From: Psammoneis japonica
Lineage: Eukaryota
Direction: 5' to 3'
DNA length: 64,000 bases
NCBI GenBank assembly: GCA_008632985.1
Contig: QPGO01000090.1
Span: 1-64,000, forward strand
Of this stretch, positions 2,146-43,633 are shown piece after piece (the stretch's first letter is position 1; each line of letters begins with the position of its first letter). The notes under the pieces are model-generated. The model saw nothing but the letters and a program-made list of their open reading frames with translations. It did not search any database and was not told the origin of the DNA. Made by a program: the position numbers and the translations under genes.

Positions 2146-4208
2146 CTATTGTAACTCAAAGACCTGCACATTACCAGCGTTATCCGGGGCTCCAACAGCG
2201 AGTGTTGTTCCATCTGTGGACAGTGATACAGAGGCTCCAAATGCATCGTCGGCTAGTCCCCCGAGCTCTTGGCCCAACGGCAGCCAGGTGTTTCCATCAG
2301 CATCAAATTGAAAGACCCGAACGTAGCCTTGTCGTCCTGTAGATGATTCGTCAGCCCCTATTGCAATGATGCGGCCATCATCAGATAGCGATACGGAATC
2401 TCCAAAGTCATCATTATCATCACTGCCCTCTAATTCTTGCCCAAGTCGCGTCCACGTCGAGCTGTCCCACTTGTAGGTGTGGACATATCCCGCATTTCCG
2501 TTCGCTCCGACTGCAACTACCATGCCGTCGGCAGATATATCAACTGAATAACCCAGCTGAGCACCTGACACATCGCCGTTAATCGGATTTCCCATTTGAA
2601 CCCATTGTTGCTCTTGCTCTTCCAAGCTGTACACACGAACTTGGCCGGAGTTACTGCCACCGGAGCTGCGGACACCGTCGTCATTATAGAAAGCTCCTAC
2701 CGCAACAACGCTGCCGTCAGCAGAAATGGCCACCGAAGAACCTGACCGATCACCCACATTCTGTCCCTTGATGCTGTCTCCCACCTTGACAAAATCATCT
2801 GGGCCGCCAGCGAGGATCGACGGCGAAAAACTTGAACGTGGCCCGAGTCGCTGCCGTTTTCGTCATTCCTTAACGCCCCAACGGCCAGCACGAGCCCATT
2901 CTTTGAAAGTGTCACAGCATATCCAAAGCCATCCCCAGAAGCTTGGCCATACAGGGTTTCCCCCACCTGGCTCCAGCCTTGGAGTACGTTGGAGTCTTGA
3001 TCAAAGATACGCACGTGGCCTCGGTCAGAATCGACGTCGCCGTCCGCGCCGTCATTTCGAGGGGCTCCCACAGCTACTGTTTTGCCATCACCTGATAGGG
3101 AGACAGACCATCCTGACCAATCACCTGTGATGTCACCGTCAATGTCTAGTCCCCATTGTTGCCAGATTTGACCAAAACGCCGGTAAACTCTGGTGTGTCC
3201 GGGAGAATTGCCATCTTCATCAACTGAAATGGCAGCGCCTATTGCTAGGACGGTTCCGTCACTAGAAAGAGAAACTGATCTGCCTGATCTGCCTCCTCGT
3301 GACTCGCCAGCAATGTCTTCTCCAATCTTTGTCCATGTTCCATTGAGAAGTTCGAAACTGGTGGGCTGTGGTGAAGAAGCTGGCGTTGGAGAAGGAGTGG
3401 GTTCTCCAGTGGTAGGGCTGGCGGTTGACGGAGGTGAGGGAGGAGAAGTGGGTGTCACCGATGCTGTTGAAGGTGAAGGAGTCGAAGGAGAAACGGTCGT
3501 TGGTTGAGTCGTCGTGGGTAAGCTGGGCATGGTCGGCGATGCGGTTGTTTGGTTCACAGTTGCACCCCCCGCACCACCGTCGTCGCCTTTCAAAGCAAAT
3601 CCAAGAACGCCACCAAGGACAGCCGCCATGACAACAATGGTAGCAACAAACATAAATTGATTCCTCGGTTTTGCCCAGCAGTTTTCCTTGGGAGCCTCCG
3701 TAGCAGCGACAATGGGAGCTGAAGTCTGACCTTCTTCGACCAGTTGAGCTTCTGCAACAATGTCGCCGCGCTGCTCTTCTGCTACTGATCCACCAATAAC
3801 GACTGTACTATTCTCGTGTACTTGAGGGCCGCTGGGTCCATCAACATGGAATGCCCCTGGGGCTGGCGGATCGTCGGTAACAGCGGTGTTCGTAGCGAAG
3901 TTGTGATCCAAATCAGCAGCAGGTTCAGATGAGCCCTTGGCGGTATTAACGGCATCTGATATTTCTTCATTTCCGTCGCTTTGCGTGGGAAAGGAGGCCA
4001 CTCCTGGTCTCCATTTATTATTGTATTTTTCAAAGTGAGCCGTTGGTCTTCGGGTCGATAGACCTTCGTCGGGCTGATGTACGCGTCCACTCTGTCCTGC
4101 TGTCGTACTTCCTACAGCATTCGAAGACGCTGTTGACACTCCTTCGCTACCTTGGTTGCCGCTTTTCGGCTCAGAAACCGTCGGCTTGAGAGATTGATCG
4201 ACCGGCAT
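2146..4208 (-). CDS. Single-pass membrane protein with P/T-rich stalk and FG-GAP-like beta-propeller repeats
   Basis: ORFs 2697-4208 and 2146-2784 join through a 1-nt frameshift near 2800-2820. TM helix FMFVATIVVMAAVLGGVLGFAL, PT/PS stalk, then about six repeats of G(D)xxGxSVSLSxDGxxxAVGA...GHVRVF. Confidence 0.75.
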
Positions 4209-26407: not shown

Positions 26408-29051
26408 ATGAACGCATTCAGATTGAGGTTTTGTGCTATCCTGAGTTTTTGTTTCTTTTCCTGTTTTATTCCAGACAAGATCCGCTCTGGCTTCTTGTTT
26501 GTCTCTGCTTTTTGCCGCACACAACCATCAAGAAGCTTCTCTGTTATTGCGAAAGAGCATCTTTCGTACAGAAAATTCACCCGCCCTCGAAACATCTACT
26601 TGTATTCTTACAATGACAATGGCGGAGGATTTTCATTGGAAGTGATGAAGATGATGAATTGAACGATTTGTGGTTTTCGGTAGACAACGATGACATTGAC
26701 GAAGACGATTCTCTCGAGACGCAACCGCCGCCGCAGTGGATAAAGGCACCGCAAGAAAGAATGTTTCAAGAAATGGAGGATGAAACTGCCGAGAAGAAGC
26801 AGAGTAAACAAAGAATGGGTCGAAAGTATGGTGCCGTACCACGACCACCCGAGTATTGGGAATTTCGAATACGCCTCTTGCGCGACTATTACGAACAACA
26901 CGGTCACATTGACGTGCCCTATCTATACGTTTGCCTACTACTGTAGAGGAATTGGTGGCGGCACAAAACATGACGTGTGAACAAGTGGTTTCGTCAACGG
27001 GACGTCCGCCCAAACAAAACAAAAATCAATTTCGATTGGGCCACGTGGTGTTTGCGCTCCGCGACATGGGACAAGAACGGGTTCCGGCACAGCTTGTAAA
27101 AGAATTGAATCAAATGGGCATGACATGGTCACCCGTGGGACGGGGACGACAGCCTGCCAAATTCCGGCAACGATTGGCCATGTGGAATAATTCGACACGA
27201 CGAGACGAGGAGGTGGATAGTTGGATGTGGCAACAACGGTACAACTACAATCGACAAGAAACGCACAGTCTGCCGGGACCGGTGACACCCGAACGAGTAG
27301 AACAATTGACCGAGGTTGGTATTTTACCCTACAAACGACCGCGAACTATACTGCGGGACTATTTTGATACAGCGTGGCAAGAGTCTTTGCAATCATGGAA
27401 ACACGAGTCCGCACAACAGAGTGAGACCATGGACGTTTGGGTCTGGGAACAACTACGAATGCATCATGCACTTGTTGGTGGAGAATCTGCCAAAGGGAGT
27501 GTCACCGACTACTTACCCAAGCTATTGACGGCACCAAGGCTTCAGAACTTGACAGAATGCAACTTTTTACAGCAAGCTACGGTTGCGTTGCGAGGGCAAA
27601 ACGCCATTTCTCCGGAACAAGATGTCTTGGCGTTAAACTTGGACTGGGACAAGGTTTGGTCGGCATTGACGGCATTCAAGAAGCAACACCAGCACCTGCG
27701 CATTACACCACTGCTCGCTTTTTACGACAACATGGATCTCTATTCTGTATCCCGTCGTCTAATGTTGGAATACAAAAACATCCAAAGAGGTTCAAATGTT
27801 AATGTAGACGTGAAACAACATCTTTTGTTGAATAACAAAAGAATCCAATCCCTAAAGGACCTTGGGTTCTTTAAGGACGACAAGAGAAGGAAAAAGGATG
27901 GGCCTCTGGCAGCTGAATATCAATGGTGGGAATACTACCATGAGCTTCGGCGATATCGGGACCGCTATGGAACCGTACAAGCATCTGCCAAAGCCAACCC
28001 TGAACTGAATGAGTGGATCAAGCAACAACAAGAGCAGTTTCGAAAGATTATGGATAGCGTCAATACGAGTCACGACAAGAAGGGACCGCTGTCCGAGACT
28101 CACTATGTCGCATTGGTTAATTTGGGTATGGCTTTCGAATCGCCATTGCTCGATACCATGCCCGAGCAACCACCAGCGCTGTTTGCAGCCAAGAGCACCC
28201 GCGTGGGTCGACCACCGGCCCTGTTAGCCTTGAATCCTGATGTCGCAGCAACTAAAAATACCTCCAAGAATAAACTTGGTGAAAAGCACAAGGCGGTCGT
28301 GGAGGAGTCTGTTTGGATGACTCGTTACCGAGAAATGAAACTGTTTATGGAAAAGCATGGTCATTGTAGCATCCCGAGCGGTGGTGACGGACAACTCGCA
28401 CTGTGGGCTTTCTTTCAACGGGTGCAATACGAGCGACTCTTGTCGGGCAGAAAAAGTCGAAGCTTGACTCCAAAACGTATTCAACTGCTTAAGGATATTG
28501 GATTTGATTTCCATCAAGGCGACATCACCACCACAAGTTATCACCATGAAGGACAAGACGAGAAGGAGGAGTGGACATTCATGGTGCAGGAGCTCGTGCG
28601 ATTCAAGCAAGAGAACGGTCATTGTTTCATTCCCGCAAGTCTGCCAAGTAACCCGAGTTTAGGACAATGGGTCCATACACAGCGTCAACTCGTTCGACAG
28701 CAGCCAAAGCAAAAGAAACTGTCCAACAAGCAAAGAAAGCAACTCATGGAGGCAGGCCTTGATTTGGAAATGGGCAATATAGAGTATGCTCGCAGAGCTT
28801 TCCAGACGCAATGGGACGCGAGAGTTGCCGAGTTGAAAGCATTCAAAGCTCATCATGGACATTGTCGAGTGGAGGCTTTTGTGCATAATCACGATAATAT
28901 CGGTGATTGGAACAAATACAAACAGTTACAGAAATGGGTGCAGGACCAGCGGCGTTTCTACAAGTTGTGGCAGGAGAACGAAATCCCGTCTCACGTAAAT
29001 GGCGAGAGAATAAAAGAGTTGGAATCGTTAGGGTTTCAGTGGGAAGAGTGA
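26408..29051 (+). CDS. Multi helicase-associated (HA) domain protein
   Basis: Repeated WxxxxxELxxFKxxHGHC...LxxWVxxQR...RIxxLxxxGF motifs in 26931-29051. The N-terminal part (26408-26940, signal-like) joins through apparent frameshifts near 26640 and 26930, so the start is uncertain. Confidence 0.75.
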
Positions 29052-29313
29052 GTCAGCATAACAGAGAGATAATCTCATACTCCAAGCTATGATAGGGCCT
29101 TACTCTAGTTGTCGCCATACATAGAGTATGGTAGTATGTGGGAACAAAAAAGGCCTTCGATTTATTCGTCGGCATGAGCTTCGTAGAGCTTCAGTAGTTT
29201 CTTTACATACGCAGAATGCACGTTTCGTTCAATACAAAGAGTAATGTACTACATACTGTGAGGTAAACCAGTGGGATGTGTGTAGATTAGACAAAACGTT
29301 TCCCGCGCAATCT

Positions 29314-32300
29314 GGTAAAGATTTCATGCTCGTGGCTGGTTAACGACAAGCCCATAGCCCAATCTCTTTGTCTGACTTCGAGCCAAAGTAAGCTAAATGG
29401 TTAGTGTAAATCGTTAAGTGTCATTTCCACTTCGACACAAAGAAAGCTAAATGGTTAGTGTAAATCGTTAAGTGTCATTTCCACTTCCATACAAAGACAG
29501 CTAAATGCTTAACGGTAGTGGTCAGATTTCAAAATCTGAGCAATACAGAAATGTCAATGATGAATAAGGATTTTAGATTGCTTCTGCCGTAAATATCATT
29601 ACGCCAATGCCACTAATGAATTCACAAATGAATTTGTATTCCATCCTTTTCCTGAACTTTGATCTATCGGCATTTTCGATACGAGTGCTCGACGCGATGA
29701 CAATGAGGCATGCTTGTATGTGTCATGGCCATAAGCTGTGAGGCGTACCGTCACATTTGGATTGAACTCGGGGATCTTGATGTCGAAAGTAGCCATTTGT
29801 TTGACATTCGTGATTTTTCATCGCCCACAAACTGGGATTTCAACTGAGTCGAGTTGATGTTGGACGTGTTTCAAAGCACTGCGTTTGATGAAACAATTGA
29901 GGGCTCTGGAATTATGGCATTTTATGCCATGGAGACTTAAAACAGCAAATGGGTTGACAATCAAGCAGTGATCGGGTTTGCCAACATTTCCAAAAATGTG
30001 ACAACAAAAGTTGCATCACTCAACAACCAACAACATCTCAAGAGATGGAAACAAGAAAAGTGACTCCTCTTTGCACTTGAATTAAAAGAGACAACAATGC
30101 ACAACAAACATTTGAGAAGGACAAGAAGCTCTTGAATGCATGGAACCAGAAGAGAGTCAATGAATCGCTCTTGTTTTGAACCTCTTGACCTGTTCTGTCC
30201 ATGATGGTGGTTGGCTGAAAGGTTGGTGGTGGTTTTTTTGTGTGACTTGCAGCTTGAGGCATGTTGATGCATGAACACATGGCCCATGTGTGGTGTCACC
30301 TTTGGAAAGTGCCACTTGTGGAGCTTGCGTGGACAACTCTCTGTGCTCAAGCTTTGTCCGCCAAATGCTCCATCAAAGTCCAGATGATGCTGCCACATCC
30401 CACCCGACCATTGACACAAAACAGTTCTTGCAAAATGTTGTTGCCCATTTCCCTCTTCCTCTGCAGAGCAGCCCTCTTGGTGACAGTGCTGCCCACATGC
30501 CAGAATGTGCTCAAGAATGCTTTCCATTTTGCCAGCAAAGATGCCCAACGTGGGGCTGTGTGGGCTCGAATCTCTCTCAAGACAAGCTGACATTTGTGCC
30601 TGGCACTGGCGGCAATGCTCAGCCCTCCTTCCTGTTTGACTTCCCAGGAGTGTGCCCAGATCTCCTGCGTGCTGAGTGGCTCAACCACAAGAGTCGCTGT
30701 CTTTGTCAGTTTTGTCAGCAGGATGTGCCAAGGCTGCTCTGGCCATGTGTGCGCAAGGACAGCTGCGACAGTGCTTTCTGCTGTCAGCAAAGAGTGTGAG
30801 CTGGCTGGACTGCCCAACCCCACACTTCACAGCTCCTTGGCAGTCACTCCAAATCAAGTGCCAACTTGGGGTCAACCGCACCTGGCTGGCTGCAATGCAA
30901 AGACAGCTGTGGCAGCACTTTGTGACAACAAAGAGAGTGCGAGCTGGCTGGGCTCCCAACCCCACACTTCACAGCCCCTCAGCACTGGATCCCAATCAAA
31001 TGCCAACTTGGGGCCAATGGCTGTGAAGCCATCATTGCAAATCCCTGTGCCTGCCCCCTCACACAGCTTTGCACAGGGTCAACATTTGTGGCCTTTGCAA
31101 GATGGGCCCTGGCTGGCTGCTGGCTCTTCAGCCACACGGCTTGCACAACAAGCCACCACAACACAGAGCACTGTGGGGTGAGTGCAGCACAGCCCAAACA
31201 AGCACACCATGCTGAGATCACCCAGAGTTGGCTGCTGTCCTGGGGCTCCATTCAAAGCTGGGCTGGGCTGCTTGGCTCCTTGGTGTGCAGCACATGCTTG
31301 GCATCACACTCTTGTTGCCAAGCAGCCACATGGCATGTGCCCACCATTTGTGCCTGCAACAGTGACCCCAGCCACAAAGAAGCCAACAAAAAGTTGAACC
31401 TGGTTTTGTGGTTGAAGAGTGAAGAAACTGTGAGTGAAGTTTGGTTCAAGATTTGTTGGCAATGCCAAGTGGGCAACCAAAGAGAGGCGCCAAAAATGGC
31501 CATTCTCGCTCATTTCTCAAGAGGAGCTTGCGCTCATGATGCAGGGTCTGAAGCAAGCACCAGCCAAGACAACAGTTTTTTCTCTCTGCCCCACTTAAAA
31601 CACAGCCTTTGAGTCAATGTGGTGCTCCTTCAACAACTCACGCACACTGGGAAGAGCAGCTGGAGCCAGGGCAGCTGGCCTGGCAGGGCTTGGCTGACAC
31701 CCAAGCTGGGCTGCTCAGCCTGGTGGCACACACTCAGTGCCACATTGTCACCCTCCTGCAACTGCAATGTGCCCCACTCTTTGCACCTGCAGCAACCACC
31801 CTGGATCAAAAGAAGCCAGTGCAACTCTGGCCATGGTTGCATGGTCAATTGTGTGTGTGTGTTCAACGGTTGATTCCCCTCTTTTTTTCTCTTTTCCTTT
31901 AACCGGCCACGAACATGAAAAAATTGCCCAATCTGGTAAAGATTTCATGCTCGTGGCTGGTTAACGACAAGCCCATAGCCCAATCTCTTTGTCTGACTTC
32001 GAGCCAAAGTAAGCTAAATGGTTAGTGTAAATCGTTAAGTGTCATTTCCACTTCGACACAAAGAAAGCTAAATGGTTAGTGTAAATCGTTAAGTGTCATT
32101 TCCACTTCCATACAAAGACAGCTAAATGCTTAACGGTAGTGGTCAGATTTCAAAATCTGAGCAATACAGAAATGTCAATGATGAATAAGGATTTTAGATT
32201 GCTTCTGCCGTAAATATCATTACGCCAATGCCACTAATGAATTCACAAATGAATTTGTATTCCATCCTTTTCCTGAACTTTGATCTATCGGCATTTTCGA

Positions 32301-35300
32301 TACGAGTGCTCGACGCGATGACAATGAGGCATGCTTGTATGTGTCATGGCCATAAGCTGTGAGGCGTACCGTCACATTTGGATTGAACTCGGGGATCTTG
32401 ATGTCGAAAGTAGCCATTTGTTTGACATTCGTGATTTTTCATCGCCCACAAACTGGGATTTCAACTGAGTCGAGTTGATGTTGGACGTGTTTCAAAGCAC
32501 TGCGTTTGATGAAACAATTGAGGGCTCTGGAATTATGGCATTTTATGCCATGGAGACTTAAAACAGCAAATGGGTTGACAATCAAGCAGTGATCGGGTTT
32601 GCCAACATTTCCAAAAATGTGACAACAAAAGTTGCATCACTCAACAACCAACAACATCTCAAGAGATGGAAACAAGAAAAGTGACTCCTCTTTGCACTTG
32701 AATTAAAAGAGACAACAATGCACAACAAACATTTGAGAAGGACAAGAAGCTCTTGAATGCATGGAACCAGAAGAGAGTCAATGAATCGCTCTTGTTTTGA
32801 ACCTCTTGACCTGTTCTGTCCATGATGGTGGTTGGCTGAAAGGTTGGTGGTGGTTTTTTTGTGTGACTTGCAGCTTGAGGCATGTTGATGCATGAACACA
32901 TGGCCCATGTGTGGTGTCACCTTTGGAAAGTGCCACTTGTGGAGCTTGCGTGGACAACTCTCTGTGCTCAAGCTTTGTCCGCCAAATGCTCCATCAAAGT
33001 CCAGATGATGCTGCCACATCCCACCCGACCATTGACACAAAACAGTTCTTGCAAAATGTTGTTGCCCATTTCCCTCTTCCTCTGCAGAGCAGCCCTCTTG
33101 GTGACAGTGCTGCCCACATGCCAGAATGTGCTCAAGAATGCTTTCCATTTTGCCAGCAAAGATGCCCAACGTGGGGCTGTGTGGGCTCGAATCTCTCTCA
33201 AGACAAGCTGACATTTGTGCCTGGCACTGGCGGCAATGCTCAGCCCTCCTTCCTGTTTGACTTCCCAGGAGTGTGCCCAGATCTCCTGCGTGCTGAGTGG
33301 CTCAACCACAAGAGTCGCTGTCTTTGTCAGTTTTGTCAGCAGGATGTGCCAAGGCTGCTCTGGCCATGTGTGCGCAAGGACAGCTGCGACAGTGCTTTCT
33401 GCTGTCAGCAAAGAGTGTGAGCTGGCTGGACTGCCCAACCCCACACTTCACAGCTCCTTGGCAGTCACTCCAAATCAAGTGCCAACTTGGGGTCAACCGC
33501 ACCTGGCTGGCTGCAATGCAAAGACAGCTGTGGCAGCACTTTGTGACAACAAAGAGAGTGCGAGCTGGCTGGGCTCCCAACCCCACACTTCACAGCCCCT
33601 CAGCACTGGATCCCAATCAAATGCCAACTTGGGGCCAATGGCTGTGAAGCCATCATTGCAAATCCCTGTGCCTGCCCCCTCACACAGCTTTGCACAGGGT
33701 CAACATTTGTGGCCTTTGCAAGATGGGCCCTGGCTGGCTGCTGGCTCTTCAGCCACACGGCTTGCACAACAAGCCACCACAACACAGAGCACTGTGGGGT
33801 GAGTGCAGCACAGCCCAAACAAGCACACCATGCTGAGATCACCCAGAGTTGGCTGCTGTCCTGGGGCTCCATTCAAAGCTGGGCTGGGCTGCTTGGCTCC
33901 TTGGTGTGCAGCACATGCTTGGCATCACACTCTTGTTGCCAAGCAGCCACATGGCATGTGCCCACCATTTGTGCCTGCAACAGTGACCCCAGCCACAAAG
34001 AAGCCAACAAAAAGTTGAACCTGGTTTTGTGGTTGAAGAGTGAAGAAACTGTGAGTGAAGTTTGGTTCAAGATTTGTTGGCAATGCCAAGTGGGCAACCA
34101 AAGAGAGGCGCCAAAAATGGCCATTCTCGCTCATTTCTCAAGAGGAGCTTGCGCTCATGATGCAGGGTCTGAAGCAAGCACCAGCCAAGACAACAGTTTT
34201 TTCTCTCTGCCCCACTTAAAACACAGCCTTTGAGTCAATGTGGTGCTCCTTCAACAACTCACGCACACTGGGAAGAGCAGCTGGAGCCAGGGCAGCTGGC
34301 CTGGCAGGGCTTGGCTGACACCCAAGCTGGGCTGCTCAGCCTGGTGGCACACACTCAGTGCCACATTGTCACCCTCCTGCAACTGCAATGTGCCCCACTC
34401 TTTGCACCTGCAGCAACCACCCTGGATCAAAAGAAGCCAGTGCAACTCTGGCCATGGTTGCATGGTCAATTGTGTGTGTGTGTTCAACGGTTGATTCCCC
34501 TCTTTTTTTCTCTTTTCCTTTAACCGGCCACGAACATGAAAAAATTGCCCAATCTGGTAAAGATTTCATGCTCGTGGCTGGTTAACGACAAGCCCATAGC
34601 CCAATCTCTTTGTCTGACTTCGAGCCAAAGTAAGCTAAATGGTTAGTGTAAATCGTTAAGTGTCATTTCCACTTCGACACAAAGAAAGCTAAATGGTTAG
34701 TGTAAATCGTTAAGTGTCATTTCCACTTCCATACAAAGACAGCTAAATGCTTAACGGTAGTGGTCAGATTTCAAAATCTGAGCAATACAGAAATGTCAAT
34801 GATGAATAAGGATTTTAGATTGCTTCTGCCGTAAATATCATTACGCCAATGCCACTAATGAATTCACAAATGAATTTGTATTCCATCCTTTTCCTGAACT
34901 TTGATCTATCGGCATTTTCGATACGAGTGCTCGACGCGATGACAATGAGGCATGCTTGTATGTGTCATGGCCATAAGCTGTGAGGCGTACCGTCACATTT
35001 GGATTGAACTCGGGGATCTTGATGTCGAAAGTAGCCATTTGTTTGACATTCGTGATTTTTCATCGCCCACAAACTGGGATTTCAACTGAGTCGAGTTGAT
35101 GTTGGACGTGTTTCAAAGCACTGCGTTTGATGAAACAATTGAGGGCTCTGGAATTATGGCATTTTATGCCATGGAGACTTAAAACAGCAAATGGGTTGAC
35201 AATCAAGCAGTGATCGGGTTTGCCAACATTTCCAAAAATGTGACAACAAAAGTTGCATCACTCAACAACCAACAACATCTCAAGAGATGGAAACAAGAAA

Positions 35301-38300
35301 AGTGACTCCTCTTTGCACTTGAATTAAAAGAGACAACAATGCACAACAAACATTTGAGAAGGACAAGAAGCTCTTGAATGCATGGAACCAGAAGAGAGTC
35401 AATGAATCGCTCTTGTTTTGAACCTCTTGACCTGTTCTGTCCATGATGGTGGTTGGCTGAAAGGTTGGTGGTGGTTTTTTTGTGTGACTTGCAGCTTGAG
35501 GCATGTTGATGCATGAACACATGGCCCATGTGTGGTGTCACCTTTGGAAAGTGCCACTTGTGGAGCTTGAGTGGACAACTCTCTGTGCTCAAGCTTTGTC
35601 CGCCAAATGCTCCATCAAAGTCCAGATGATGCTGCCACATCCCACCCGACCATTGACACAAAACAGTTCTTGCAAAATGTTGTTGCCCATTTCCCTCTTC
35701 CTCTGCAGAGCAGCCCTCTTGGTGACAGTGCTGCCCACATGCCAGAATGTGCTCAAGAATGCTTTCCATTTTGCCAGCAAAGATGCCCAACGCGGGGCTG
35801 TGTGGGCTCGAATCTCTCTCAAGACAAGCTGACATTTGTGCCTGGCACTGGCGGCAATGCTCAGCCCTCCTTCCTGTTTGACTTCCCAGGAGTGTGCCCA
35901 GATCTCCTGCGTGCTGAGTGGCTCAACCACAAGAGTCGCTGTCTTTGTCAGTTTTGTCAGCAGGATGTGCCAAGGCTGCTCTGGCCATGTGTGCGCAAGG
36001 ACAGCTGCGACAGTGCTTTCTGCTGTCAGCAAAGAGTGTGAGCTGGCTGGACTGCCCAACCCCACACTTCACAGCTCCTTGGCAGTCACTCCAAATCAAG
36101 TGCCAACTTGGGGTCAACCGCACCTGGCTGGCTGCAATGCAAAGACAGCTGTGGCAGCACTTTGTGACAACAAAGAGAGTGCGAGCTGGCTGGGCTCCCA
36201 ACCCCACACTTCACAGCCCCTCAGCACTGGATCCCAATCAAATGCCAACTTGGGGCCAATGGCTGTGAAGCCATCATTGCAAATCCCTGTGCCTGCCCCC
36301 TCACACAGCTTTGCACAGGGTCAACATTTGTGGCCTTTGCAAGATGGGCCCTGGCTGGCTGCTGGCTCTTCAGCCACACGGCTTGCACAACAAGCCACCA
36401 CAACACAGAGCACTGTGGGGTGAGTGCAGCACAGCCCAAACAAGCACACCATGCTGAGATCACCCAGAGTTGGCTGCTGTCCTGGGGCTCCATTCAAAGC
36501 TGGGCTGGGCTGCTTGGCTCCTTGGTGTGCAGCACATGCTTGGCATCACACTCTTGTTGCCAAGCAGCCACATGGCATGTGCCCACCATTTGTGCCTGCA
36601 ACAGTGACCCCAGCCACAAAGAAGCCAACAAAAAGTTGAACCTGGTTTTGTGGTTGAAGAGTGAAGAAACTGTGAGTGAAGTTTGGTTCAAGATTTGTTG
36701 GCAATGCCAAGTGGGCAACCAAAGAGAGGCGCCAAAAATGGCCATTCTCGCTCATTTCTCAAGAGGAGCTTGCGCTCATGATGCAGGGTCTGAAGCAAGC
36801 ACCAGCCAAGACAACAGTTTTTTCTCTCTGCCCCACTTAAAACACAGCCTTTGAGTCAATGTGGTGCTCCTTCAACAACTCACGCACACTGGGAAGAGCA
36901 GCTGGAGCCAGGGCAGCTGGCCTGGCAGGGCTTGGCTGATGCCCAAGCTGGGCTGCTCAGCCTGGTGGCACACACTCAGTGCCACATTGTCACCCTCCTG
37001 CAACTGCAATGTGCCCCACTCTTTGCACCTGCAGCAACCACCCTGGATCAAAAGAAGCCAGTGCAACTCTGGCCATGGTTGCATGGTCAATTGTGTGTGT
37101 GTGTTCAACGGTTGATTCCCCTCTTTTTTTCTCTTTTCCTTTAACCGGCCACGAACATGAAAAAATTGCCCAATCTGGTAAAGATTTCATGCTCGTGGCT
37201 GGTTAACGACAAGCCCATAGCCCAATCTCTTTGTCTGACTTCGAGCCAAAGTAAGCTAAATGGTTAGTGTAAATCGTTAAGTGTCATTTCCACTTCGACA
37301 CAAAGAAAGCTAAATGGTTAGTGTAAATCGTTAAGTGTCATTTCCACTTCCATACAAAGACAGCTAAATGCTTAACGGTAGTGGTCAGATTTCAAAATCT
37401 GAGCAATACAGAAATGTCAATGATGAATAAGGATTTTAGATTGCTTCTGCCGTAAATATCATTACGCCAATGCCACTAATGAATTCACAAATGAATTTGT
37501 ATTCCATCCTTTTCCTGAACTTTGATCTATCGGCATTTTCGATACGAGTGCTCGACGCGATGACAATGAGGCATGCTTGTATGTGTCATGGCCATAAGCT
37601 GTGAGGCGTACCGTCACATTTGGATTGAACTCGGGATCTTGATGTCGAAAGTAGCCATTTGTTTGACATTCGTGATTTTTCATCGCCCACAAACTGGGAT
37701 TTCAACTGAGTCGAGTTGATGTTGGACGTGTTTCAAAGCACTGCGTTTGATGAAACAATTGAGGGCTCTGGAATTATGGCATTTTATGCCATGGAGACTT
37801 AAAACAGCAAATGGGTTGACAATCAAGCAGTGATCGGGTTTGCCAACATTTCCAAAAATGTGACAACAAAAGTTGCATCACTCAACAACCAACAACATCT
37901 CAAGAGATGGAAACAAGAAAAGTGACTCCTCTTTGCACTTGAATTAAAAGAGACAACAATGCACAACAAACATTTGAGAAGGACAAGAAGCTCTTGAATG
38001 CATGGAACCAGAAGAGAGTCAATGAATCGCTCTTGTTTTGAACCTCTTGACCTGTTCTGTCCATGATGGTGGTTGGCTGAAAGGTTGGTGGTGGTTTTTT
38101 TGTGTGACTTGCAGCTTGAGGCATGTTGATGCATGAACACATGGCCCATGTGTGGTGTCACCTTTGGAAAGTGCCACTTGTGGAGCTTGAGTGGACAACT
38201 CTCTGTGCTCAAGCTTTGTCCGCCAAATGCTCCATCAAAGTCCAGATGATGCTGCCACATCCCACCCGACCATTGACACAAAACAGTTCTTGCAAAATGT

Positions 38301-41300
38301 TGTTGCCCATTTCCCTCTTCCTCTGCAGAGCAGCCCTCTTGGTGACAGTGCTGCCCACATGCCAGAATGTGCTCAAGATGCTTTCCATTTTGCCAGCAAA
38401 GATGCCCAACGCGGGGCTGTGTGGGCTCGAATCTCTCTCAAGACAAGCTGACATTTGTGCCTGGCACTGGCGGCAATGCTCAGCCCTCCTTCCTGTTTGA
38501 CTTCCCAGGAGTGTGCCCAGATCTCCTGCGTGCTGAGTGGCTCAACCACAAGAGTCGCTGTCTTTGTCAGTTTTGTCAGCAGGATGTGCCAAGGCTGCTC
38601 TGGCCATGTGTGCGCAAGGACAGCTGCGACAGTGCTTTCTGCTGTCAGCAAAGAGTGTGAGCTGGCTGGACTGCCCAACCCCACACTTCACAGCTCCTTG
38701 GCAGTCACTCCAAATCAAGTGCCAACTTGGGGTCAACCGCACCTGGCTGGCTGCAATGCAAAGACAGCTGTGGCAGCACTTTGTGACAACAAAGAGAGTG
38801 CGAGCTGGCTGGGCTCCCAACCCCACACTTCACAGCCCCTCAGCACTGGATCCCAATCAAATGCCAACTTGGGGCCAATGGCTGTGAAGCCATCATTGCA
38901 AATCCCTGTGCCTGCCCCCTCACACAGCTTTGCACAGGGTCAACATTTGTGGCCTTTGCAAGATGGGCCCTGGCTGGCTGCTGGCTCTTCAGCCACACGG
39001 CTTGCACAACAAGCCACCACAACACAGAGCACTGTGGGGTGAGTGCAGCACAGCCCAAACAAGCACACCATGCTGAGATCACCCAGAGTTGGCTGCTGTC
39101 CTGGGGCTCCATTCAAAGCTGGGCTGGGCTGCTTGGCTCCTTGGTGTGCAGCACATGCTTGGCATCACACTCTTGTTGCCAAGCAGCCACATGGCATGTG
39201 CCCACCATTTGTGCCTGCAACAGTGACCCCAGCCACAAAGAAGCCAACAAAAAGTTGAACCTGGTTTGTGGTTGAAGAGTGAAGAAACTGTGAGTGAAGT
39301 TTGGTTCAAGATTTGTTGGCAATGCCAAGTGGGCAACCAAAGAGAGGCGCCAAAAATGGCCATTCTCGCTCATTTCTCAAGAGGAGCTTGCGCTCATGAT
39401 GCAGGGTCTGAAGCAAGCACCAGCCAAGACAACAGTTTTTTCTCTCTGCCCCACTTAAAACACAGCCTTTGAGTCAATGTGGTGCTCCTTCAACAACTCA
39501 CGCACACTGGGAAGAGCAGCTGGAGCCAGGGCAGCTGGCCTGGCAGGGCTTGGCTGATGCCCAAGCTGGGCTGCTCAGCCTGGTGGCACACACTCAGTGC
39601 CACATTGTCACCCTCCTGCAACTGCAATGTGCCCCACTCTTTGCACCTGCAGCAACCACCCTGGATCAAAGAAGCCAGTGCAACTCTGGCCATGGTTGCA
39701 TGGTCAATTGTGTGTGTGTGTTCAACGGTTGATTCCCCTCTTTTTTTCTCTTTTCCTTTAACCGGCCACGAACATGAAAAAATTGCCCAATCTGGTAAAG
39801 ATTTCATGCTCGTGGCTGGTTAACGACAAGCCCATAGCCCAATCTCTTTGTCTGACTTCGAGCCAAAGTAAGCTAAATGGTTAGTGTAAATCGTTAAGTG
39901 TCATTTCCACTTCGACACAAAGAAAGCTAAATGGTTAGTGTAAATCGTTAAGTGTCATTTCCACTTCCATACAAAGACAGCTAAATGCTTAACGGTAGTG
40001 GTCAGATTTCAAAATCTGAGCAATACAGAAATGTCAATGATGAATAAGGATTTTAGATTGCTTCTGCCGTAAATATCATTACGCCAATGCCACTAATGAA
40101 TTCACAAATGAATTTGTATTCCATCCTTTTCCTGAACTTTGATCTATCGGCATTTTCGATACGAGTGCTCGACGCGATGACAATGAGGCATGCTTGTATG
40201 TGTCATGGCCATAAGCTGTGAGGCGTACCGTCACATTTGGATTGAACTCGGGGATCTTGATGTCGAAAGTAGCCATTTGTTTGACATTCGTGATTTTTCA
40301 TCGCCCACAAACTGGGATTTCAACTGAGTCGAGTTGATGTTGGACGTGTTTCAAAGCACTGCGTTTGATGAAACAATTGAGGGCTCTGGAATTATGGCAT
40401 TTTATGCCATGGAGACTTAAAACAGCAAATGGGTTGACAATCAAGCAGTGATCGGGTTTGCCAACATTTCCAAAAATGTGACAACAAAAGTTGCATCACT
40501 CAACAACCAACAACATCTCAAGAGATGGAAACAAGAAAAGTGACTCCTCTTTGCACTTGAATTAAAAGAGACAACAATGCACAACAAACATTTGAGAAGG
40601 ACAAGAAGCTCTTGAATGCATGGAACCAGAAGAGAGTCAATGAATCGCTCTTGTTTTGAACCTCTTGACCTGTTCTGTCCATGATGGTGGTTGGCTGAAA
40701 GGTTGGTGGTGGTTTTTTTGTGTGACTTGCAGCTTGAGGCATGTTGATGCATGAACACATGGCCCATGTGTGGTGTCACCTTTGGAAAGTGCCACTTGTG
40801 GAGCTTGAGTGGACAACTCTCTGTGCTCAAGCTTTGTCCGCCAAATGCTCCATCAAAGTCCAGATGATGCTGCCACATCCCACCCGACCATTGACACAAA
40901 ACAGTTCTTGCAAAATGTTGTTGCCCATTTCCCTCTTCCTCTGCAGAGCAGCCCTCTTGGTGACAGTGCTGCCCACATGCCAGAATGTGCTCAAGAATGC
41001 TTTCCATTTTGCCAGCAAAGATGCCCAACGCGGGGCTGTGTGGGCTCGAATCTCTCTCAAGACAAGCTGACATTTGTGCCTGGCACTGGCGGCAATGCTC
41101 AGCCCTCCTTCCTGTTTGACTTCCCAGGAGTGTGCCCAGATCTCCTGCGTGCTGAGTGGCTCAACCACAAGAGTCGCTGTCTTTGTCAGTTTTGTCAGCA
41201 GGATGTGCCAAGGCTGCTCTGGCCATGTGTGCGCAAGGACAGCTGCGACAGTGCTTTCTGCTGTCAGCAAAGAGTGTGAGCTGGCTGGACTGCCCAACCC

Positions 41301-42408
41301 CACACTTCACAGCTCCTTGGCAGTTACTCCAAATCAAGTGCCAACTTGGGGTCAACCGCACCTGGCTGGCTGCAATGCAAAGACAGCTGTGGCAGCACTT
41401 TGTGACAACAAAGAGAGTGCGAGCTGGCTGGGCTCCCAACCCCACACTTCACAGCCCCTCAGCACTGGATCCCAATCAAATGCCAACTTGGGGCCAATGG
41501 CTGTGAAGCCATCATTGCAAATCCCTGTGCCTGCCCCCTCACACAGCTTTGCACAGGGTCAACATTTGTGGCCTTTGCAAGATGGGCCCTGGCTGGCTGC
41601 TGGCTCTTCAGCCACACGGCTTGCACAACAAGCCACCACAACACAGAGCACTGTGGGGTGAGTGCAGCACAGCCCAAACAAGCACACCATGCTGAGATCA
41701 CCCAGAGTTGGCTGCTGTCCTGGGGCTCCATTCAAAGCTGGGCTGGGCTGCTTGGCTCCTTGGTGTGCAGCACATGCTTGGCATCACACTCTTGTTGCCA
41801 AGCAGCCACATGGCATGTGCCCACCATTTGTGCCTGCAACAGTGACCCCAGCCACAAAGAAGCCAACAAAAAGTTGAACCTGGTTTTGTGGTTGAAGAGT
41901 GAAGAAACTGTGAGTGAAGTTTGGTTCAAGATTTGTTGGCAATGCCAAGTGGGCAACCAAAGAGAGGCGCCAAAAATGGCCATTCTCGCTCATTTCTCAA
42001 GAGGAGCTTGCGCTCATGATGCAGGGTCTGAAGCAAGCACCAGCCAAGACAACAGTTTTTTCTCTCTGCCCCACTTAAAACACAGCCTTTGAGTCAATGT
42101 GGTGCTCCTTCAACAACTCACGCACACTGGGAAGAGCAGCTGGAGCCAGGGCAGCTGGCCTGGCAGGGCTTGGCTGACACCCAAGCTGGGCTGCTCAGCC
42201 TGGTGGCACACACTCAGTGCCACATTGTCACCCTCCTGCAACTGCAATGTGCCCCACTCTTTGCACCTGCAGCAACCACCCTGGATCAAAAGAAGCCAGT
42301 GCAACTCTGGCCATGGTTGCATGGTCAATTGTGTGTGTGTGTTCAACGGTTGATTCCCCTCTTTTTTTCTCTTTTCCTTTAACCGGCCACGAACATGAAA
42401 AAATTGCC
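29314..42408. mobile_element. Head-to-tail array of five 2.6-kb non-autonomous TIR elements (MULE/IS256-like or Merlin-like ends)
   Basis: Copies at 29314-31928, 31935-34549, 34556-37170, 37177-39787 and 39794-42408. Imperfect 30-bp TIRs: ggtaaagatttcatgctcgtggctggttaa versus ggcaattttttcatgttcgtggccggttaa. One 8-bp TSD CGCAATCT at 29306-29313 and 42409-42416. CAATCT spacer at all four junctions. Confidence 0.9.
29390..29510 (+). repeat. Subterminal direct repeats near the left TIR (present in every unit)
   Basis: aagctaaatggttagtgtaaatcgttaagtgtcatttccactt occurs twice, plus a partial third copy. Confidence 0.85.
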
Positions 42409-42568
42409 CGCAATCTTGCCCGTGAATGAACACGCATGTGAGCTTCGAAAGATCTCGAAGATGACGCCGAACACAAACGAATCTCGCTCGACGGCCATTT
42501 CATTCATAAAATACTCCGGGGAACCGCATCTATCCAATCTTGCTTGAAACAACAGCAACAGCATCGAC

Positions 42569-43633
42569 ATGTCTAATCCTCCTGAAGCCAAAAAGCAAAA
42601 GACCGAGTCCGAGTTGGATCAACTCAAAGCCTTTACGATTTGTGTGGCTGACACGGGTGATATCAACGCAATCAACAAGTTCAAGCCGCAGGATGCAACG
42701 ACAAATCCGTCCCTGATCTACAAGGCTGCCACCATGCCTGACTATGCTCACCTAGTTGATGACGCGGTAAAACACGGTGGAGATGACTTGAGCCTCGTCA
42801 TGGTAAGCCGACTTGAGCACATAGCACATGCAGGGCATTCCTCGGCTCAGCGGTATGTTTAACATCTTATGCTGCTCTCATCTCTTTCGTAGGACAAACT
42901 CGCAGTCAGCTTTGGAACGGAGATTACCAAGATTGTTCCAGGATATGTATCGACCGAAGTGGATGCCCGCCTCTCCTTTGATACAGAAGCCACCATTGCC
43001 AAGGCGCGCCAAATCATTCAGCTCTACAAGGAGGCGGGCATTGACAAGTCTCGAATCCTCATCAAGATTGCCGCCACGTGGGAGGGTATTCGAGCCGCCG
43101 AAGTTCTCGAAAAGGAGGGCATTACTTGCAATTTGACTCTCATTTTTAGTCTTGCTCAAGCCATTGCATGTGCCGAGGCGGGTGCCACCTTGATTTCGCC
43201 CTTTGTGGGGCGCATCATGGATTGGTACAAAAAGGAAGAGGGAGTGGATGGATACAGTCCAGCAGACGATCCCGGTGTCAAGTCGGTCACTCAAATCTAC
43301 AATTACTACAAGAAGCACGGTCACGACACGATTGTCATGGGTGCTTCCTTTCGCAACAAGGGCGAGATTTTGGAGCTGGCTGGATGCGATCGTCTCACCA
43401 TTTCTCCCGCTCTGCTGGACGAGCTCACTTCTGGCGACAGCGAGGTGGATCGCAAGTTGGACGCCGCAAATGTGGCGGATATGGATATTGCAAAGATCAG
43501 CATGGATGAGAAGACCTTTCGATGGATGCTCAATGAAGATCCAATGGCCACGGTGAAGCTCGCAGAGGGGATTCGTAACTTTTCTGCCGATATCGTCAAG
43601 CTCGAAAAGATTGTGAAAGAAAAGATGGGTTAA
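42569..43633 (+). CDS. TAL: Transaldolase
   Basis: [37 protein letters not shown] and TIVMGASFR. Intron 42803-42892. Confidence 0.95.

Follow-up and report, generated by a model that had tools for sequence, protein, structure and literature searches.

Mobile elements are known to turn into satellite DNA by way of tandem arrays of entire DNA transposons, and several systems have been described that resemble the array reported here. As described in PMC5932611, the Drosophila P and hobo elements form head-to-tail dimers of full-length TIR elements with 8-bp TSDs and local TSD spacers, and such dimers expand into arrays; the hobo array of strain I03, which is euchromatic and lies near a gene, grew from one dimer with a local-target spacer, and all of its junctions are identical. 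These junctions hold the full 8-nt TSD, which is the signature of double insertion. Intact P junctions are mostly 8 nt, with a minority of other lengths, and junction deletions were found in 24 of 36 hobo dimers. The same article describes the heterochromatic Bari1 arrays of Drosophila, whose junctions all share one lesion and hold neither TIR sequence nor a TSD, and which have been explained either by a circle and rolling-circle replication or by a dimer that underwent junction deletion and then expansion. In bacteria, PMC7780238 describes the insertion sequences ISCth4 and IS256, which have a known DDE transposase, make 8-bp TSDs, and form circles and (IS)2 dimers whose transient and highly reactive junctions hold a short stretch of flank from next to the recipient end (6-8 bp for ISCth4; 5, 6, 7 and 19 bp for IS256); a spacer of 6 bp is the typical length or the one optimal for integration. 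KolobokP, a eukaryotic DDE transposon, forms TSD-flanked multimers whose units share long terminal direct repeats and carry TTAA duplications, and provides no TIR-spacer-TIR junction for comparison (PMC9587614).

Here we analyse an array of a non-coding, cut-and-paste-type transposon on a chromosome of the diatom Psammoneis japonica, a host that the analysis placed among the raphid pennates; the window is the whole stretch of 64,000 nucleotides of contig QPGO01000090.1 that was examined. Like the P and hobo dimers and the I03 array, it consists of full-length TIR elements with 8-bp TSDs arranged head to tail, its spacer comes from the local target, its junctions are identical, and it occupies a euchromatic position near a gene; unlike them, it has junctions of 6 nt instead of the full 8-nt TSD. 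It shares with the IS256 and ISCth4 junctions the 8-bp TSD and the short spacer of flank bases with the typical length of 6 bp, but it is a stable array in a diatom chromosome that appears to derive from a single founding event. As in Bari1, a DNA-transposon array shows the same lesion at every junction; however, complete TIRs and a partial TSD are present here, and whereas the hobo and Bari1 junction deletions take TIR sequence, the TIRs of this array are untouched. With KolobokP it has in common that a eukaryotic transposon forms a TSD-flanked multimer, but the long terminal direct repeats of KolobokP have no counterpart here.

Results

As assembled, positions 29306-42416 of the window hold five head-to-tail copies of a 2615-bp element (2611 bp in copy 4), all on the forward strand, and independent repeat finders likewise counted five, at a period of 2617-2621; the unit measures 2621 bp. 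Occurrences of the left-end motif begin at 29314, 31935, 34556, 37177 and 39794 and the right-end motif ends at 31928, 34549, 37170, 39787 and 42408, which delimits copy 1 (29314-31928), copy 2 (31935-34549), copy 3 (34556-37170), copy 4 (37177-39787) and copy 5 (39794-42408), with lengths of 2615, 2615, 2615, 2611 and 2615 bp, respectively. The element begins with GGTAA and has the termini GG..CC; in copy 1, the left TIR occupies 29314-29343 and the right TIR 31899-31928. The outer flanks at 29306-29313 and 42409-42416 both read CGCAATCT (8/8 match at this single locus), and the two flanks disagree at the first base beyond the duplication in either direction. The inner spacers at 31929-31934, 34550-34555, 37171-37176 and 39788-39793 all read CAATCT (4/4), the six bases adjoining the left end. 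Thus, the anatomy is as the earlier note had described it, namely a five-copy array bounded by an 8-bp TSD and with CAATCT alone at its inner junctions. Both TIRs are whole at every junction, the CG that is absent belongs to the flank beside the right end, and neither outer TSD carries a scar. The position of the joint is ambiguous by 1 nt, as the right end followed by the C of the right flank and then AATCT reads equally well, which amounts to a 1-nt microhomology (C) at the joint. A subterminal tandem repeat of 54 bp (29375-29511 in copy 1; 2.5 copies, 91% matches), visible in the self-comparison, was found in all five units. The array forms a 13-kb insertion between two genes and lies 152 bp upstream of a transaldolase gene.

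The TIRs match at 24 of 30 terminal positions (binomial P about 4e-10), and the similarity fades beyond about 30 bp (26/35, 30/50). Because the longest exact run within the TIRs is only 7, the repeat finder returned no inverted pairs at a seed of 12. A 21-nt TIR core pattern occurs ten times in the window, five times per strand and only within the array, where 0.02 occurrences were expected and ten were reached in 0 of 100 shuffles. The scan for this core found no occurrence in metagenome contigs or prokaryotic genomes and one in viral contigs; the viral match was rejected as chance, having the core alone in common and no similar terminus. None of the 11 element ORFs had a Pfam match at the cut-off, and the codon score was at most 0.004 in all 13 element ORFs scored, compared with 0.115-0.362 for eight window genes. 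No transposase domain was found in the 64 window ORFs outside the element (18 + 46) or in the 11 element ORFs, the sole weak domain match of this search being DUF5134 (E 0.011), below its cut-off. Between the element and the rest of the window there are only chance matches of 15-19 nt, and a captured gene fragment is therefore absent from the element. With its TIRs, an outer TSD, dispersed copies and no transposase gene of its own, the element is a non-autonomous class II (TIR) DNA transposon.

The superfamily was compared on TSD length and termini. Merlin elements have GG termini, and hAT elements combine an 8-bp TSD with termini of the YARNG type. For hAT, the TSD length fits, but the GGTAA start is unlike the YARNG motif. 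The 8-bp TSD also lies within the MULE range of 8-11 bp (PMC6446971). Long TIRs are absent here, where the similarity extends over about 30 bp, but this does not exclude a MULE because some MULEs have no long TIRs. Merlin fits in TSD length as well, since both Merlin and IS1016 make 8-bp TSDs (PMC10045372), as the earlier note had said of Merlin.

The inner spacer equals the last six of the eight TSD bases and matches the local flank at 6/6 positions, for which the chance is about 1 in 4096; the junction was therefore formed at this locus, and transposition of a pre-formed dimer into the site is ruled out by the same match. Recombination between the two TSDs fails as well, as it leaves an 8-bp spacer, just as had been claimed, and a spacer of 6 bp is seen. 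A second insertion into exactly the same target predicts an 8-bp spacer too, against 6 bp at 4/4 junctions. An insertion into the offset target CAATCTGG would give the right spacer but also an extra GG before copy 1, which is absent, the left outer flank being CGCAATCT followed directly by the element, while a second insertion offset on the right predicts the spacer CGCAAT, which is not seen. Exact and offset targets thus fail on either the spacer or the outer flank, which upholds the earlier argument against independent insertions, and the double-insertion model (McGurk and Barbash) fails on both of its tests, the full-TSD spacer and the shifted outer duplication.

The same comparison bears on duplication without any transposase, whether by a replication template switch or microhomology or by TSD exchange plus a spontaneous 2-bp deletion, followed in each case by amplification. 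The TSD pair is an 8-bp direct repeat of a kind able to prime duplication (PMC13167724), and the joint shows a 1-nt microhomology. However, TSD-primed microhomology duplication predicts a unit of 2623 bp with an 8-bp spacer, 2 bp longer than the unit observed, and a template switch to the internal GCCCAATCT site would run into element position 53, not the left terminus. A random duplication would not place one breakpoint precisely on the right terminus and the other 6 nt away from the left one. Slippage is not favoured because the lost CG lies outside any dinucleotide repeat within the 8-bp junction, and a spontaneous indel falling within 8 bp of a 5-kb dimer, over a span that brought about 5 substitutions in 13 kb, would be improbable. 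We therefore regard an origin of this kind as very improbable.

Public reads comprised four runs (X1-X4) from a single sample and study, from which the assembly may also derive, and contigs of the four runs were aligned to a permuted unit centred on junction 1. In X1, 496 contigs align to the unit, 229 of them with an identity of at least 99%. A 152-nt unitig with a depth of 2400 stops exactly at 31928 and another contig starts at 31935; the depth of terminal unitigs is 2400-3043, whereas 12 contigs with unique deletion joints have a median depth of about 61, a ratio that suggests, very roughly, some 40-50 near-identical copies. The family is thus high-copy, dispersed and very active, and its copies diverge exactly at the termini found in the array. 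None of the contigs listed for the four runs crosses the junction at 31928-31935, and the bin depths of X2, X3 and X4 show 31888-31934 as uncovered. A joint from 30833 to 32877, which leads from element position 1520 back to 943, has a depth of 44.8 and a side of 22, below the reliability hint; this low-reliability joint might represent another tandem in which a deletion spans the junction. In the open literature (subscription journals being outside the coverage), we found no account of this diatom TIR family or of a junction holding six of eight TSD bases.

Copies 1 and 2 do not differ from each other and have two variants of their own, a C at column 1015 and a T at column 1238; at the positions 32949 and 33172, all X1 contigs carry the other letter (4795/4795 and 3231/3231 of the depth). 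Columns 1015, 1238, 2385 and 2386 distinguish copy 3 from copies 1 and 2; copy 3 shares the TG at columns 2385-2386 with copy 4, which has the substitutions of copy 3 and, in addition, four 1-bp homopolymer deletions (columns 457, 1203, 2091 and 2495). Copy 5 has a private T at column 1532. Among copies 1, 2, 3 and 5 there are no homopolymer discrepancies, and the four confined to copy 4 look like residual long-read errors. Because variants are common to neighbouring copies, the array grew stepwise, through unequal exchange. Given such growth, the four junctions would most simply be copies of one founding event, that is, one observation (n=1) and not four.

These data also bear on whether the short spacer might be an assembly artefact, in which the inner spacers are really 8 bp long, their CG was lost through a systematic error of the long-read consensus, and the copy number is perhaps wrong too. 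The error would persist at the inner junctions because short reads map ambiguously there, while the outer junction, to which reads map uniquely, would have been corrected. Residual long-read error typically produces deletions such as those in copy 4, the CG that is missing is a CpG and possibly methylated, and the absence of bridging contigs among those listed, together with the uncovered interval in X2-X4, would agree with such an error. The right outer junction, however, keeps its CG although its context is the same for more than 30 nt on the upstream side and for 8 nt downstream, and the agreement of copies 1, 2, 3 and 5 in their homopolymers speaks against a systematic problem. Moreover, no indel is common to all contigs among the rows listed, two long unitigs agree with the window at every position (0 differences), and a 2-nt deletion outside a repeat would be unusual for a consensus error. 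Hence, we consider an artefact distinctly unlikely.

Discussion

The reading that we tentatively prefer, and to which we give slightly less than even confidence, is that host end joining made the junction after transposase cleavage and that unequal exchange then amplified it. One copy of the active, non-coding TIR transposon would have inserted between two diatom genes and generated the CGCAATCT duplication, and a single head-to-tail junction would have arisen later at the same locus. For this, the right end, cut by the transposase exactly at its terminus, would have been joined by the host to the flank 6 nt outside the left end (5 nt if the 1-nt microhomology was used), and unequal sister-chromatid exchange would then have copied the junction until five units were reached. 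Both the maker of the joint and its substrate are what we infer here: the substrate may have been a pre-existing dimer with a full 8-bp spacer that received a 2-nt scar, sister chromatids joined to one another, or an excised copy that circularised with a few flank bases and recombined into the resident copy. If the flank lost 2 nt next to a cleaved right end and the host rejoined the ends, the observed sequence would result, in keeping with known eukaryotic behaviour. In addition to the P and hobo junctions described above, the MULE Muta1 leaves flank deletions of 1-4 bp, which its authors read as cutting outside the TIR (PMC5225508). The C microhomology lends weak support to end joining, and chance alone gives it in 25% of cases. 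On the other side, exactly 2 nt of the spacer were lost with the TIRs untouched, which a random scar would only sometimes yield, and neither outer TSD is scarred. Starting from a dimer would take two events, both rare: another insertion into the same 8 bp in the same orientation, and after it a scar. The length of 6 nt, by analogy, corresponds to the IS256-family optimum, which end joining would not predict.

The IS256 analogy leads to an asymmetric strand transfer, in which the transposase would nick the right end and the 3'-OH would attack the same strand 6 nt outside the left end, with amplification again by unequal exchange. With the same element as the target, a figure-eight and then a circle would form, which would later recombine into the resident copy; with the sister chromatid as the target, a tandem dimer would form directly, as for the bacterial (IS)2 dimers. 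The junction has the TIR-spacer-TIR geometry of the IS256 type, its spacer being six of the eight bases, those beside the left end, compared with 5-8 bp in the family, and both the TIRs and the outer TSDs are intact; in this respect, the match to ISCth4 and IS256 is exact, and PMC7780238 supports the earlier note in that IS256-family circles hold a few flank bases between their ends. Furthermore, IS30 makes minicircles or tandem IS dimers by joining of its inverted repeats (PMC9333248), and the excision of the eukaryotic KolobokP involves a one-sided loss of 1-5 bp of flank that its authors likened to IS3 and IS256 circles (PMC9587614). This route would also require just one founding event. 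Nevertheless, the four junctions count as one event (n=1), neither the 64 window ORFs outside the element nor the element itself holds a transposase, and TIRs of 30 bp are short for MULEs, in which they commonly reach hundreds of bp. The eukaryotic MULE tested in yeast excises and reinserts, according to PMC5225508, and in the open literature, with subscription journals outside the coverage, we found no eukaryotic copy-out reaction. Bacterial junctions of the IS256 type are highly reactive, and yet the four junctions of this array have lasted long enough for substitutions to accumulate. On balance, we see asymmetric strand transfer as a rather unlikely origin. The earlier note had proposed bacterial-IS-like joining of an end to the flank, followed by amplification in place. 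This proposal is supported in part: the geometry and the local origin agree with it, but the stepwise growth weakens it by making the four junctions most simply one event, and a 2-nt end-joining scar beside a cleaved right end fits the geometry equally well as IS256. The 6-nt junction could thus be a repair scar or the product of a bacterial-style end-joining reaction, seen at one locus.

Intact ends with a spacer 2 nt short depart from the full-TSD rule of the documented P and hobo double-insertion cases. Had a transposase made the junction, the sequence would show that a eukaryotic TIR element can undergo asymmetric end-to-flank joining, the strand transfer by which bacterial copy-out/paste-in elements of the IS256 family are defined, and the array would be a fossil left by the junction of a circle or an inter-sister dimer, chromosomally fixed and then amplified. 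Such a junction would also bear on maize Mutator, since the mode of action of the Mutator proteins has not been elucidated and possible replicative transposition has been mentioned (PMC10401008). Should the junction instead be a repair scar, the array would be an ordinary example of a dimer that acquired a scar and then expanded; even so, it documents a diatom family of very active non-autonomous transposons, together with a 13-kb insertion near a transaldolase gene.

Structure of the array and its unit

Tandem Repeats Finder detected five occurrences of one 54-bp subterminal repeat about 2621 bp apart, and the repeat finder gave five copies with a start-to-start spacing of 2617-2621. Anchoring on the terminal motifs placed copies 1 to 5 at 29314-31928, 31935-34549, 34556-37170, 37177-39787, and 39794-42408, with lengths of 2615, 2615, 2615, 2611, and 2615 bp. 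The outer flanks are CGCAATCT on both sides and the inner spacers are CAATCT at all four junctions, so that the anatomy described in the earlier note (five copies, an 8-bp outer duplication, and CAATCT inner spacers) is confirmed by these coordinates. The array exists in the assembled sequence, from which its copy number and 6-bp spacer are also taken. Each junction has a 1-nt ambiguity, as it can be read as the right end plus CAATCT or as the right end plus the right-flank C and AATCT. The 9-mer GCCCAATCT, created at every junction (e.g., 31925-31933), recurs once inside the element at 29357-29365, positions 44-52 of its left end; such a recurrence has a chance of roughly 0.05-0.1, and it could be a coincidence or a hint of a target resembling a subterminal motif.

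The unit is a TIR element of the non-autonomous kind; its ends are GG..CC and its duplication measures 8 bp. Its termini form an imperfect inverted repeat (24/30 matches, P about 4e-10) whose similarity fades past 30 bp; as no exact run in it is longer than 7, the repeat finder did not report it as an inverted pair. A 21-nt core of this repeat has 10 occurrences, all within the array, against 0.02 expected. None of the 11 ORFs of the unit reached the Pfam cut-off, and codon scores were non-coding (≤0.004) in all 13 scored element ORFs, compared with 0.115-0.362 for eight window genes. No transposase was found among the 64 other window ORFs scanned, and the unit shares only chance matches of 15-19 nt with the rest of the window. 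Every copy also carries a pair of internal direct repeats of about 125 bp and 80% identity (element positions 1440-1562 and 1584-1704; window 30753-30875 and 30897-31017 in copy 1), besides the 54-bp subterminal repeats, and its GC content, about 0.40 at the left end, reaches 0.52-0.58 in the middle.

The 8-bp duplication is compatible with IS256/Mutator, Merlin, and hAT. The terminus, GGTAA, appears not to match the terminal motif of hAT elements. Inverted repeats of 30 bp are atypically short for Mutator-like elements (PMC6446971). One match to the 21-nt core in a contig of a viral collection (L001 2960-3060) shares nothing around the core and is a chance match.

The window holds many closely spaced genes, among them plastid-type DUF2499 and DUF3593 genes and ORFs with helicase-associated-domain repeats. 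The inositol-3-phosphate synthase encoded in it shares 76-79% identity with the proteins of Cylindrotheca, Nitzschia, and other relatives, so that the host is a raphid pennate diatom. The 13.1-kb array interrupts what was an intergenic stretch of about 415 bp; it starts 254 bp past an ORF of helicase-associated-domain repeats (26913-29051) and ends 152 bp upstream of the ATG (42569) of a transaldolase gene (exon 1 to about 42860; the ORF resumes at 42893-43630), whose promoter may be affected by the array.

The family in read data and the history of the array

Four public runs, the only ones found, were compared with one permuted unit; they come from one sample of one study, possibly the source of the assembly. 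In run X1, 496 contigs matched the unit (229 at ≥99% identity, 118 at 95-99%, 97 at 90-95%, and 52 below 90%). A unitig of depth 2400 stops exactly at the right terminus 31928, one contig starts exactly at the left terminus 31935, and 12 contigs have unique internal-deletion or rearrangement joints (median depth about 61). These data support a family that is dispersed, has been very active recently, and ends exactly at these termini, with very roughly 40-50 near-identical copies, a figure derived from contig depths, which are no copy number. The source sample has many internally deleted derivatives, whose skips measure 31-262 bp or about 520-620 bp and whose depths are each close to single copy. 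A weak signal comes from one joint that connects element position 1520 back to 943; it might mark a second tandem in which a deletion spans the junction.

The five-copy alignment has nine variable columns, namely four 1-bp homopolymer deletions and five substitutions. All four deletions are in copy 4 (columns 457, 1203, 2091, and 2495); they look like residual errors of an unpolished long-read consensus, and suggest that the assembly of the array, copy number included, is least secure there. Copies 1 and 2 are identical, both with C at column 1015 and T at column 1238; columns 2385-2386 are TG in copies 3 and 4 and CA in copies 1, 2, and 5; and a T at column 1532 is found in copy 5 only. At the copy-2 equivalents of columns 1015 and 1238, the X1 contigs have the other letter throughout (4795/4795 and 3231/3231 in depth); thus, these variants are private to the array or rare. 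A G at 32631 is common to all five copies, where all contigs have A. From the pattern of substitutions, the array therefore had one founder and then grew stepwise by unequal exchange or conversion. Most simply, the four junctions are copies of one founding junction, which leaves a single event to be explained.

The CA versus TG difference recurs at the same dinucleotide among copies and family members (31698-31699 and the same columns in other copies); run contigs also differ in this way at 31501-31502 and 33067-33068, and a C/T difference at column 1238 falls in a CpG. Such a pattern is what deamination of methylated CpG would produce on one strand or the other, and it suggests present or past methylation of the family.

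Origin of the founding junction

The spacer matches the local flank at 6/6 positions, so the junction arose at this locus, and a pre-formed dimer transposing in is ruled out. Exchange or microhomology duplication between the 8-bp duplications predicts an 8-bp spacer and a 2623-bp unit, where 2621 bp is observed. A second insertion into the same 8 bp also predicts an 8-bp spacer; one at CAATCTGG gives the correct spacer, but the extra GG it predicts at the left outer flank is absent; and a right-offset one predicts CGCAAT. Random tandem duplication would not put one breakpoint precisely on the right terminus and its partner 6 nt away from the left one. With these simple routes excluded, the joint therefore includes a right end severed precisely at the tip, which points to transposase cleavage; transposase-independent routes seem very improbable to us. 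An error of the unpolished consensus at the inner junctions is a distinctly doubtful explanation, which we keep because the missing dinucleotide is a CpG, residual errors are present in copy 4, and no junction-spanning read or contig is among those listed from the runs.

Since a single event is to be explained and no transposase was found among the ORFs scanned, we tentatively prefer host end joining following cleavage, and consider strand transfer by a transposase of the IS256 type possible but rather unlikely. End joining might have acted on a dimer with an initially full spacer, leaving a 2-nt scar in the flank next to the right end; it might have joined the right end to the sister chromatid; or it might have closed an excised copy into a circle together with a few bases of flank, the circle later recombining into the resident copy. 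These reactions are known, but they involve more steps than strand transfer and do not predict the number 6. In P and hobo, dimers with 8-nt spacers of local origin grow into arrays, the spacer being 8 nt in only the majority of intact P junctions and 24 of 36 hobo dimers having junction deletions; Bari1 arrays repeat one lesion at each junction (PMC5932611). Muta1 shows flank deletions of 1-4 bp, which its authors read as cuts outside the TIR (PMC5225508).

For strand transfer, a single event suffices. In the bacterial elements ISCth4 and IS256, the duplication is likewise 8 bp long, and the junction spacers, of 6-8 bp (ISCth4) or 5, 6, 7, and 19 bp (IS256), derive from flank sequence next to the recipient end, with 6 bp optimal (PMC7780238). 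The array has exactly this geometry. One-sided flank loss in a eukaryotic element has already been likened to such circles by the authors of the KolobokP study (PMC9587614). However, the papers reached by our searches show no such strand-transfer event in eukaryotes. The proposal that the array is a footprint of a bacterial-IS-like mechanism is thus partly supported: it stands as to geometry, which is exactly that of IS256/ISCth4, and is weakened as to mechanism, as the junctions most simply go back to one founding event and end joining also fits. Arrays of whole transposons are already known; the variant here is one in which both inverted repeats are intact and the spacer consists of only the 6 bases beside one end.
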